Virus record (IMG/VR): IMGVR_UViG_3300033153_015023
Span: 16,026 to 80,025 of that record
Direction: 5' to 3' (one strand)
Origin: a virus
DNA: 64,000 nt
Made by a program: the position numbers and the translations under genes. Below the pieces are notes generated by a model. That model did not search any database. It was not told where the DNA came from and saw only the letters and a program-made list of their open reading frames with translations. Of this stretch, positions 3,998-58,390 are shown piece after piece; the first letter of the stretch is position 1; every line of letters starts with the position of its first letter.

Positions 3998-6424
3998 ATG
4001 TCATCAAAGAAACTTAGTAAAACAGCAGAAGTAATTTTAAAAGAAAGATATTATAATCCAGGAGAGGATTGGCAGAGGTTATGCAGGCGAGTTGCAAAGT
4101 ATATAGATATAGATGGAAAATATGAAGATCAGTTTTTTGAGATGATGTATGAATTGGATTTTTTACCTAATTCACCGACATTGATGAATGCAGGAACTGA
4201 GTTGAAGAATCTGAGCGCATGTTTTATATTACCTATTCCAGATTATATGGATGGTATTTTTAATACTCTTAAAGTCGCTGCTTTGATTCAAGCATCTGGC
4301 GGAGGAACTGGATTTGATTTAAGTGACTTGCGACCGAAAGGATCTCGAGTTAGTAGTACAGGTGGGGTTACTTCTGGTCCCATTAGTTTTTTAAGAGTTT
4401 ATGATTCTGCATCAAATGTGATTAAACAAGGAGGAAAACGGCGTGCCGCGAATATGGCTATTATGAGATGTGATCACTTAGATATAAAGGAATTTATACG
4501 ATGTAAAGCTGCGGAAGATAAAATTACGAATTTCAACGTTTCTGTGGCTGCTACAGATGATTTTATGAGAGCATGTGAAGAGGATACAGATTGGAAGCTT
4601 GATTTTAACACTCATAATTTAGAGCCTATTACTCTTCCTGCAAATGAATTAATGGATATGATTATCAATGGTGCGTGGAAGAATGGAGAACCTGGATTGT
4701 TTTTTATCGATACTGCTAATCGTTTATCTTCTATCGATGAGCGTATTGTTGCTACAAATCCGTGTATTGCTGGAGAGAGTCGTGTTGAGATTGTAGGAGA
4801 TCGATTAAAATATCCGGAAGGTGTTCCGATCAAGAGTCTTGTAGGAAAGTCCGGTTTTTACGTACACAGCTATTGCAATAAAAGAAAGCGACTTGTATTA
4901 GGAAAGGTATCTCGCGTATGGAAGACCGGCAGAAAAAAAGTCTATAGAGTCACATATCAGTGGAAGGGTGGTAAGGGAAGAAAGGTACTAAAGGTAGGTT
5001 CTATTTGTGTTACAGCAGATCATGAATTTATGATGAGAGGTGGTCGTTCGAATGCTCACTCTCGGTTTATCGACGGAGAGTATGTTGCTGCTAAAGACTT
5101 AAGAGCGGGAGATGCTTTGATGCCATTAAACCATAAAGTTGTGTCTGTAGAGGAAGTCGGCTATAGAGATGTGTATGATATGGAAGTTGAAAAATATCAT
5201 AATTTTGCTGTTGAAGGTATAATAGTTCACAATTGTGGGGAAATTCCACTCCCACCGTATGGAAGTTGCAATCTAGGTTCAATTAATCTTTCTCAGTGTG
5301 TTGATGATGAGAGTGTAGCCTGGGATAAATTGAGCCAATTAATACATCTTGGAATTCGATTTTTAGATGATGTAGTTGAGCGGAATGAATATATAATTCC
5401 GGAAATTGGCGATTCTGCAAAAAAATATCGTTCTCTCGGTTTAGGTATAATGGGTTGGGCAGATATGCTTTTAAAGATGCAGATTAGATATGGTAGTGAT
5501 AAGAGTTTAGATCTTGCTCGACGGATTGGTTCCTTTGTGAAAAAGGAGGCTAAAAAGGAGAGCTGGCGACTCTGTAAAAAAAGAGGAGAGAACAGCGAAG
5601 GTAAAGATCGGAGAAATGCAATGCTAACATCTATAGCTCCTACCGGAACGATTTCTATGTTAGCTGGATGTAGTTCTGGAATTGAACCGAACTTTGCATG
5701 GACGTGGCAATCAAATAGAATGGATAGAGTATTTGAACATTTTCATCCTTTAGCACAAAAATATTTAAAACAAGGAAAAGAGCTGCCGGATTATTTTGTA
5801 ACTGCATTTGACGTATCTCCGAGCGATCACGTTCGAATGCAGGCTGTGTGGCAGGAAAACATTGATCATTCTATTTCGAAGACGATTAACTTGCCTAATG
5901 ATGCTACGAGAGGAGATATTAGAAATGTATTCTTTCAGGCGTGGAAACTTGGTTGCAAAGGAATTACTGTTTATAGAGATGGTAGTAGGAGAGAGCAAGT
6001 TTTGGTTTCAAAAACAAAGACGGATATTGTCGGAGTTGAGAAAGTGGCTCCAATAAAGAGACCAGAGAAACTGTATGGAACTACAATAAAACAGCAGACG
6101 AAAAGCGGTACTGTGTATACGACAGTGAATTTTATAAGTGACGCTCCGGTGGAAGTGTTTCTCAATACAGAGACTCGTCCGACAATTGATGGTTTAGGAA
6201 GATTGATTTCTCTTTCGTTGAGAAGCAATATCTCTGCGGAGGAAGTTATTGAGCAATTAAAGCAGAGTGGTGGAGTTGTTGAAGTTGCTGTTGCAAATGC
6301 AATTGATACATCTATTACAATAGAGAAGGATGAGCCGTGTCCGAATTGTGGTGTTAATTTAGTTCGCCGTAACGGTTGTAGAGAGTGTCTTTCGTGCGGA
6401 TGGTCTGCATGTACAATATCATAG
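3998..6424 (+). CDS. nrdJ: Class II (B12-dependent) ribonucleotide reductase with intein and C-terminal zinc ribbon
   Basis: FLPNSPTLMNAG, LSACF, GGGTG, RRAANM, NP^CGE, CNLGSINL, IAPTGT, SISKTIN, KGITVYRDGSR; ends CPNC..CLSC. Confidence 0.93.
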   Translation: MSSKKLSKTAEVILKERYYNPGEDWQRLCRRVAKYIDIDGKYEDQFFEMMYELDFLPNSPTLMNAGTELKNLSACFILPIPDYMDGIFNTLKVAALIQASGGGTGFDLSDLRPKGSRVSSTGGVTSGPISFLRVYDSASNVIKQGGKRRAANMAIMRCDHLDIKEFIRCKAAEDKITNFNVSVAATDDFMRACEEDTDWKLDFNTHNLEPITLPANELMDMIINGAWKNGEPGLFFIDTANRLSSIDERIVATNPCIAGESRVEIVGDRLKYPEGVPIKSLVGKSGFYVHSYCNKRKRLVLGKVSRVWKTGRKKVYRVTYQWKGGKGRKVLKVGSICVTADHEFMMRGGRSNAHSRFIDGEYVAAKDLRAGDALMPLNHKVVSVEEVGYRDVYDMEVEKYHNFAVEGIIVHNCGEIPLPPYGSCNLGSINLSQCVDDESVAWDKLSQLIHLGIRFLDDVVERNEYIIPEIGDSAKKYRSLGLGIMGWADMLLKMQIRYGSDKSLDLARRIGSFVKKEAKKESWRLCKKRGENSEGKDRRNAMLTSIAPTGTISMLAGCSSGIEPNFAWTWQSNRMDRVFEHFHPLAQKYLKQGKELPDYFVTAFDVSPSDHVRMQAVWQENIDHSISKTINLPNDATRGDIRNVFFQAWKLGCKGITVYRDGSRREQVLVSKTKTDIVGVEKVAPIKRPEKLYGTTIKQQTKSGTVYTTVNFISDAPVEVFLNTETRPTIDGLGRLISLSLRSNISAEEVIEQLKQSGGVVEVAVANAIDTSITIEKDEPCPNCGVNLVRRNGCRECLSCGWSACTIS
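4763..5233 (+). mobile_element. 157-aa mini-intein in NrdJ (no homing endonuclease)
   Basis: Starts CIAGESRV, block B VTADHEF, block F VYDMEV, ends IVHN before Cys+1; splits NP/CGE. Confidence 0.92.
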
Positions 6425-51876: not shown

Positions 51877-52110
51877 ATGACACTAAGGGAACTGCAAGAC
51901 CATTCAGATAAAAGGGACGATATTCTTGAAGGCAAGCTGGATAAGATCGATTATTTTCTCAATAACGGGTTATCAGAGAAAATCATTAAAGGGATTACCG
52001 ATTATCTTGATAAACAGATGGCAAAGAGGGTAAGGCTATTTTGCAAGGTATTCATCACTGCCGTTATTGTAACTTTGGTGAGCTGTGGATTAAAACTGTT
52101 GTTTTTTTGA
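51877..52110 (+). CDS. Small protein with C-terminal transmembrane helix (lysis region)
   Basis: Coiled-coil N-terminus and hydrophobic C-terminus. Confidence 0.5.
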   Translation: MTLRELQDHSDKRDDILEGKLDKIDYFLNNGLSEKIIKGITDYLDKQMAKRVRLFCKVFITAVIVTLVSCGLKLLFF

Positions 52111-52119
52111 GGTGATAAT

Positions 52120-52530
52120 GTGATTGAATGGATCCAGGTAATAAAAGCGGATATTGCAAGACTGGACAGAATGTCGGCTGCTGAAAAGTTTCGGTATTGG
52201 TGTTTAAAGCTTGTAGATGTACCTTATATATGGGGAGCCGAAAATTTTAACGATTATTCGGATAACCAGGCAACTATGGCCGTTTTTTATGGACAAAATA
52301 AAATGACGCATGTAACGCCGGTAGTCGGTAGATATGTTATATTAGATGCTGTTAATATTAATGATCCGGCAAGATTAAAAACTACTAAAAGCGTGCGGGA
52401 ATGGTATGAGCAAAGAGGATATAAAGCGGAATGGCGGCAAATAGACTGGGATAAAATAAAAGAACTTTCTAAGCTGGATAAGAGTAGCTGGGATGTCGAC
52501 CCTGCATTGAAATTATTGAGAGGTGTATGA
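52120..52530 (+). CDS. NlpC/P60-like protein lacking the catalytic DCSG segment
   Basis: VPYIWGAE and VFY....THV are present; the Cys motif between them is absent. Confidence 0.5.
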   Translation: MIEWIQVIKADIARLDRMSAAEKFRYWCLKLVDVPYIWGAENFNDYSDNQATMAVFYGQNKMTHVTPVVGRYVILDAVNINDPARLKTTKSVREWYEQRGYKAEWRQIDWDKIKELSKLDKSSWDVDPALKLLRGV

Positions 52531-52766
52531 TGAAAGACATTAAAGAAAAAACCGCATGGGAAGTTATAAAAGATATTCCTGCACGCCTACTTAGATTGAT
52601 TTGGAAACTGCTCTCCAGGAAAGGGATTATCTTAGCTCTAACAGTTTGGCTAATAAAAACTAACACATTTCCAGAAGGTTCAGAACCTTATCTTTACGGC
52701 TTTATTGTTTTATTAGTTTTATTTGGTATTGAAGGATTAAAATTTCTTAAAGATTTAAAAAAATGA
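52527..52766 (+). CDS. Holin-like membrane protein, paralog A
   Basis: Two TM helices and a basic tail; VLFGIEGLK. Confidence 0.55.
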   Translation: MMKDIKEKTAWEVIKDIPARLLRLIWKLLSRKGIILALTVWLIKTNTFPEGSEPYLYGFIVLLVLFGIEGLKFLKDLKK

Positions 52767-57513: not shown

Positions 57514-57556
57514 AAAAAAAGAAGAGGCTGCTTTTACACAGCCTCTTCTTGTATTT
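57514..57556. terminator. Terminator between convergent gene blocks, probably bidirectional
   Basis: AAGAAGAGGCTG / CAGCCTCTTCTT stem with an A tract on the left. Confidence 0.88.
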
Positions 57557-58330: not shown

Positions 58331-58390
58331 AGATCTCATCAGTGCAATTAACAATTGCAGACCAGGGCAAGTATACCCTGGTTTCGATCT
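58331..58390 (-). ncRNA. Type II hammerhead ribozyme
   Basis: AGAUC-GAAA-CCAGGG(loop)CCCUGG-UC-UGCAAUU(loop)AAUUGCA-CUGAUGA-GAUCU: full core and three perfect stems. Confidence 0.93.

Follow-up and report, generated by a model that had tools for sequence, protein, structure and literature searches.

A complete hammerhead ribozyme of type II topology lies between two small genes on the - strand of a phage genome, and, judged by covariation across other phage copies, it is shown to belong to a large covarying phage subclass. We regard it as probable that it is a genuine self-cleaving ribozyme that acts in a polycistronic phage transcript and uncouples the two halves of an operon. The window, i.e. 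the whole stretch of 64,000 nucleotides that was analysed, is the right-hand 64 kb of a complete virus record of 80,025 bp (IMG/VR record IMGVR_UViG_3300033153_015023) with direct terminal repeats and 36% G+C. Its genes include those for portal, capsid, tail tube, RecA, ribonucleotide reductase and DNA methylases. The large subunit of the ribonucleotide reductase (3998-6424, + strand) contains an intein splicing domain (Pfam PF14890, E 1e-12). The hammerhead itself is located in a - strand gene string that runs from the right genome end to a terminator-like hairpin and includes an SSB-like gene.

On the - strand the element reads from 58390 to 58331 as AGAUC-GAAA-CCAGGGUAUACUUGCCCUGG-UC-UGCAAUUGUUAAUUGCA-CUGAUGA-GAUCU (60 nt), and its parts are listed in Table 1 together with the neighbouring features. 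All 13 of 13 core nucleotides agree with the consensus of the hammerhead ribozymes (Rfam clan CL00010), as do the pairs G10.1-C11.1 (G58335-C58386) and A15.1-U16.1 (A58382-U58361) and position H17, which is C. Stems I, II and III comprise 7, 5 and 9 bp, the last value including the U-G and A-U pairs inside the CCAGGG/CCCUGG helix given by the first-pass annotation, and the topology is that of type II as loops cap stems I and III while stem II is open to the flanks. That annotation had claimed a complete type II hammerhead at 58390-58331, and every element it listed was recovered at its place. Standard hammerhead numbering predicts scission between 58360 and 58359, which is the same bond it had named, and in hammerhead chemistry the upstream end receives a 2',3'-cyclic phosphate and the downstream end a 5'-OH. 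Its description of the placement between stop codon and ribosome binding site also stands: the first base of the ribozyme adjoins the upstream TAA (58393-58391), and 5 nt separate the end of stem II from the downstream Shine-Dalgarno sequence AAGGGGG (58325-58319), which is followed by the ATG at 58313-58311.

Table 1: Positions in the window of the hammerhead parts, the flanking genes and the other intergenic elements of the operon; entries starting with L refer to other phage records.
Feature	Position	Strand	Remarks
Stem II, 5' strand AGAUC	58386-58390	-	hammerhead positions 11.5-11.1
Core G12 A13 A14	58383-58385	-	consensus GAA
Stem III hairpin, A15.1 to U16.1	58361-58382	-	9 bp, loop UACU
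C17, cleavage-site nucleotide	58360	-	position by hammerhead numbering
Stem I hairpin, 17 nt	58343-58359	-	7 bp, GUU triloop, closed by U58353-A58349
Core C3 U4 G5 A6 U7 G8 A9 (CUGAUGA)	58336-58342	-	consensus
Stem II, 3' strand GAUCU	58331-58335	-	hammerhead positions 10.1-10.5
Upstream ORF, 60 aa	58391-58573	-	AGGAG Shine-Dalgarno; no family match
Downstream ORF, 66 aa	58113-58313	-	small CxxC...CxxC protein (phrog_19722)
Bidirectional terminator-like hairpin	57519-57550	both	closes the - strand gene string
Two-hairpin element, 3 copies	63522-63450, 62535-62465, 62260-62185	-	stop-to-RBS gaps
Two-hairpin element, copies elsewhere	L268:16115-16210, L268:16490-16590, L263:3525-3625	-	85-91% identity
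Long interrupted hairpins, 3 copies	61786-61722, 61418-61355, 61172-61105	-	stop codon to RBS
Acceptor/T-arm-like minihelix	63058-62990	-	AACCUG...CCCCCGG-UUCGAUU-CCGGGGG-CAGGUU-A

Folding of the 60-mer by minimum free energy yields precisely the three-way junction (-22.7 kcal/mol, z = -4.85, none of 200 shuffles being as good), and the junction is kept in the fold of the 141-nt context. Using a descriptor scan written for all three hammerhead permutations, we found this element to be the sole hammerhead of any topology in the whole 80,025-bp genome. The same comparison with 100 first-order Markov-shuffled genomes gave 0.4 matches per genome for stems of 3 bp and no match in which every stem had at least 5 bp. 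These numbers bear on the explanation that no ribozyme exists here and that the similarity to a hammerhead is a chance product of two adjacent intergenic hairpins with the function of a nuclease site or attenuator. Plain hairpin elements are indeed present in other gaps of the operon, but a perfect 13-nt core in register with three helices occurred in 0 of the 100 shuffled genomes, the E-value with the family model described below is 8e-12 and no U-tract follows the element; a chance resemblance is in our opinion hardly credible. A possible competitor for stem II has to be counted against the self-cleaving ribozyme as best explanation: codons 3-5 of the 66-aa ORF contain a third GAUC (58304-58301, - strand, context AAAGAUCAAAAC), which can pair with either of the palindromic stem II strands and is used in the centroid fold computed for 141 nt.

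The first-pass annotation had named a search with the Rfam type II model as a check of its assignment, and this check was negative, the window having no match at the gathering score. Over the whole genome RF02276 (Hammerhead_II, gathering threshold 37 bits) gave no match at E<=10, and Rfam scans of the whole window (at the gathering score and at E<=1) and of the local region (at E<=10) returned no hammerhead family at threshold. The only Rfam signal at the element, obtained in the local E-value scan, was a permuted, sub-threshold Hammerhead_3 alignment of 25.3 bits against a cut-off of 48.5 bits, a spurious result that arises because of the third GAUC at 58304-58301. In the published type II consensus a long loop I forms a pseudoknot with the 3' tail, and the tested type II hammerheads needed this pseudoknot for speed at 0.5 mM Mg2+ (PMC3088659). 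The window element forms no such pseudoknot of 4 bp or more, as its loop I is GUU and the 3' tail GAAAGAAGGGGG offers no complement, and RF02276 misses it because a loop I of 3 nt cannot form the modelled pseudoknot. Pairing of loop I with either flank was also considered and rejected, the only candidate being a 3-nt AAC located 12 nt upstream. Five IMG/VR hammerheads with the same stem III sequence (L001-L005) do carry the loop-I/3'-tail pseudoknot. Both the absent pseudoknot and the non-recognition by RF02276 count against the best explanation. Among 14 tested loci of the subclass with GAUC in stem II, RF02276 found none at the gathering score, and a pseudoknotted control scored 41.9 bits. 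At its curated threshold this model does not see a large phage subclass of type II hammerheads, so routine annotation under-counts them.

The subclass was collected by searching IMG/VR with a pattern that imposed only the hammerhead core and a GAUC stem II, and at least 120 stretches match it (L086-L205). Among the matches listed, 96 are distinct type II hammerheads; 95 of these have a stem I hairpin of 17 nt and 94 have C at H17, neither feature being imposed by the pattern. In the larger set of 116 distinct hammerheads among the matches listed (L086-L261 and the window) base 7 of the stem I hairpin, the loop-I U, is U in 116 of 116, and the base directly 5' of the GAUC helix is A in 116 of 116 as well. 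An A follows the helix on its 3' side in 93% of the 96 and in 98 of the 116 hammerheads among the matches listed. In the window copy the stem I hairpin likewise has 17 nt, its base 7 is U and GAUC is preceded by A. Several contigs of the subclass (L090, L092, L112, L123, L125, L163 and L205) hold two to three copies at distances of a few hundred bases.

An alignment and a covariance model (R1) were then built from 92 other phage hammerheads with the window copy left out. In the alignment 96.6% of the cells of stems I and III are paired and nine pairs show double changes; the covariation score is 0.658, and it falls to 0.119 on shuffling and to 0.107 or less on sliding of the partners. The window element scores 52.3 bits with this model (E 7.8e-12, full length 1-70), and hammerheads that were held out and differ in their stem II sequence reach 36-66 bits. 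The placement between genes also recurs in the subclass, as an upstream ORF ends within -30 to +3 nt of the element in 82 of the 92 copies (-1 in the window) and a Shine-Dalgarno sequence with start codon follows in 82 of 92 at a median of 23 nt (18 nt in the window).

Closer relatives of the phage give a different picture of conservation. No close DNA match was found among GenBank phages, and the complete 58-kb mosaic relative G006, which has several genes in common with the window at 76-96% identity as well as the other intergenic elements, lacks the hammerhead and all five genes around it. A block of three small genes (51877-52766, + strand) is 92-96% identical at the DNA level to G006 (L268:17787-18815), a degree of identity that suggests recent exchange between the two phages. 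Five portal-related records (49-62% identity, two of the five estimated to be at least 85% complete) contain no hammerhead; one 16-bit match in these records was inspected and is not a hammerhead. For the neighbouring gene of 431 aa no relative was found in IMG/VR, JGI metagenomes or the portal-related records. The 66-aa gene has 182 homologues in IMG/VR, and at the 80 of these 182 loci that were examined neither an adjacent hammerhead nor another neighbour in common was present, so the ribozyme is not linked to this gene. A likely type I hammerhead (L072:672-726, + strand; stems of 6, 4 and 6 bp, core CUGACGA) sits 2.3 kb upstream of a 66-aa homologue on an unrelated viral contig. The stretch between 60525 and 57559 resembles accessory DNA specific to this lineage. 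As the nearest available kin have neither the ribozyme nor an orthologous junction, the support for the ribozyme is at the level of the family and not of orthologues, and this non-conservation in the nearest available relatives counts against the best explanation.

Natural hammerheads make a reverse-Hoogsteen U-A tertiary pair within a UNmYN loop 1 and an RNnA loop 2, and for the CChMVd hammerheads the R:A opposition found where loop 2 begins, at its base, was reported to be essential (PMC2632901). The invariant U, the invariant A and the mostly-A opposite base of the subclass would correspond to this classical loop-loop motif with loop II opened into the mRNA. The window copy retains the conserved U (58353) and A (58390), and both are able to form Watson-Crick pairs: U58353 can pair with A58349, giving a U-GUU-A tip, and A58390 can pair with U58331, which extends stem II from the 4-bp GAUC helix to 5 bp. 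It departs from the subclass at three non-core points, namely U instead of A as the middle base of loop I, the tip closed by U-A, and U instead of A at +1. The latter (58331) is found in just 6 of the 116 subclass members, and the window copy has neither the A:A opposition nor the U-N-A-N-K tip. With U in place of A at +1 the R:A opposition is replaced by an A-U pair, and these departures together with the lost opposition count against the best explanation.

They can be read as signs of a slow or decaying hammerhead that came along with an accessory gene block, lost efficient tertiary docking and would cut little at cellular Mg2+, so that it would be of little consequence. Several observations fit such a history: the ribozyme and its flanking genes are both missing from the available kin, both tertiary partners, the U of loop I and the A next to stem II, would be taken up in Watson-Crick pairs, a pseudoknot is lacking and an A-U pair stands in place of the R:A opposition, and one extra stem II pair lowered the activity of a tested type II ribozyme (PMC3088659). 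However, decay would strike the core and the helices first, and here the core is intact throughout and all three helices are perfect. Furthermore, a closed tip combined with a fifth pair in stem II is also met in unrelated phages. On unrelated viral contigs 8 other distinct complete type II hammerheads with the U-GUU-A tip were identified, and a fifth, A-U pair in stem II accompanies 5 of 12 Watson-Crick-closed tips compared to 1 of 104 others (Fisher p = 2.8e-5, the copies being partly related). By this recurrence the variant looks like a tolerated or compensated design, and we consider a slow or decaying ribozyme unlikely, although it is not without weight. We also considered a shifted contact, in which the tertiary A would lie one step further out in copies with a 5-bp stem II, and found no support for it, as A is not a constant feature of position -2 in the other five copies of this kind.

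Hammerheads located between phage or prophage genes cleave in vitro and in E. coli, and a role in dividing long phage transcripts into mRNAs of gene length has been proposed for them (PMC3088659). Such cuts have been suggested more generally to give transcripts differing in stability or translation (PMC6765202), and in D. vulgaris cleavage in vivo is known for three type II hammerheads in the vicinity of phage-like genes (PMC8782182). For the self-cleaving ribozyme that we favour the following course of events can be proposed. Once RNA polymerase has passed 58331 the 60-nt motif would fold into the three-way junction, and attack of the 2'-OH of C17 (58360) on the adjacent phosphate would cut the message between 58360 and 58359. 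The upstream RNA, with the 60-aa ORF as its last gene, would then end in the 9-bp stem III hairpin carrying the 2',3'-cyclic phosphate. The downstream RNA of about 0.8 kb would reach from 58359 to the terminator (57550-57519) with the 66-aa and 176-aa ORFs, and would carry its 5'-OH on the very nucleotide with which the 7-bp stem I hairpin begins. The Shine-Dalgarno sequence of this RNA would be single-stranded, 5 nt beyond stem II. The terminal hairpins may protect both cleavage products, and the likely purpose would be to obtain separately stable and separately translated messages from the two operon halves. Actual cleavage, its rate and its effect on mRNA stability or translation are what we infer from the sequence. 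The idea that cleavage unmasks the ribosome binding site found no support, as the Shine-Dalgarno sequence is unpaired in the fold of the 60-mer and takes little part in pairing when 141 nt are folded.

An active ribozyme could also have the opposite effect and down-regulate the downstream genes, either because the 5'-OH marks the message for the 66-aa and 176-aa proteins for decay or because translational coupling is removed. A 5'-OH is the established product of the cleavage chemistry, and in Bacillus the 5'-OH product of the glmS ribozyme is degraded by RNase J1. The strong Shine-Dalgarno sequences and the G+C content of 36% would be compatible with a Firmicute-like host having RNase J. However, U58359, which would bear the 5'-OH, already opens a 7-bp hairpin and leaves no single-stranded 5' tail to a 5' exonuclease, and we regard down-regulation as improbable.

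The other gaps between stop codon and ribosome binding site in the - strand gene string hold three further kinds of elements (Table 1). The first is a two-hairpin element with the consensus CUAACAUCCUACUGGACGGC...GCCGUYUGGYGGGCUGUUAGCCU followed by an A-rich tail, Shine-Dalgarno sequence and start codon, and consists of a long hairpin and a small U-GUU-A triloop hairpin, of which the latter covaries with G-C, C-G and U-A at one pair. It is also found, likewise in a gene-to-gene position, in two further phage records, and could be an undescribed processing RNA. The second kind comprises long interrupted hairpins in which the lower stem is common to the copies and rich in A/U (GGUUUUAUUG / GUAAAGC) and the upper stems are variable and rich in G/C (z down to -6.5), one copy matching G006 at 88.6%; these look like sites for a double-strand-specific nuclease. 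The third is a minihelix resembling the acceptor and T arms of a tRNA, with a canonical T-loop (GGUUCGAUUCC) and with neither a D arm nor an anticodon arm, and it is not called by ARAGORN or by the Rfam tRNA model. None of the three kinds gave a match to an Rfam family or in ARAGORN. Their presence supports the view that the gaps of this operon are generally used for RNA-level signals.

The two-hairpin element and stem I of the hammerhead have the rare U-GUU-A tip in common. Hairpins with a GUU triloop are not enriched genome-wide (10 on the - strand, 7.8 expected); six of these 10 are located in this 6-kb operon, three of the six being copies of one repeat. Only tentatively, and as a rather doubtful idea, do we put forward that the hammerhead belongs to a set of interchangeable cistron separators within this one operon. 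If all of these elements were processing signals, or if one protein reads the GUU hairpin, cutting by a ribozyme and enzyme-dependent cutting would exist side by side in one phage. A ribozyme among other conserved intergenic RNA elements offers a within-operon comparison of what cutting between cistrons achieves.

With respect to known systems the window ribozyme is a clean but ordinary example, as such elements are known and common in phages: phage genomes hold thousands of hammerheads, and this copy adds a clean instance and no new principle. In outcome it would be similar to the early genes of phage T7, where RNase III sites between genes cut the polycistronic message and a hairpin remains at the new 3' end. 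Both use intergenic structured RNA at which the message is cut, or would be cut, and the analogy is a functional one, as T7 relies on a host enzyme and its sites have no catalytic RNA core. The type II hammerheads of Desulfovibrio vulgaris share the topology and the hypothetical or phage-like gene neighbours with the window copy (cyPhyRNA-seq, PMC8782182). In D. vulgaris both cleavage fragments were captured from cells for chromosomal loci of a cultivated bacterium, whereas the window phage is uncultured. The loop-loop motif of viroid, satellite and Schistosoma hammerheads (Dufour et al. 2009, PMC2632901) has its counterpart in the 5' loop-I U, the A located where loop 2 would have its 3' end and the mostly-A opposite base of the subclass. 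In contrast to that motif, loop 2 of the subclass is open with its ends running into the flanking mRNA, the contact is one suggested by conservation, and the U and A of the window copy are able to pair in Watson-Crick fashion (U-A tip; A58390-U58331).

The closest comparison is that with the type II hammerheads of bacteria, prophages and phages described in 2011 (Perreault et al. 2011, PMC3088659; Rfam RF02276). The window copy differs from them in having a loop I of 3 nt and no loop-I/3'-tail pseudoknot, in a stem II of 5 bp compared to 2-4 bp, in a score below any reportable threshold of RF02276, and in being a single copy, whereas theirs cluster flanking a gene. It is like them in the catalytic core, in the permutation, in its intergenic site within a phage polycistronic RNA and in the role proposed for it.
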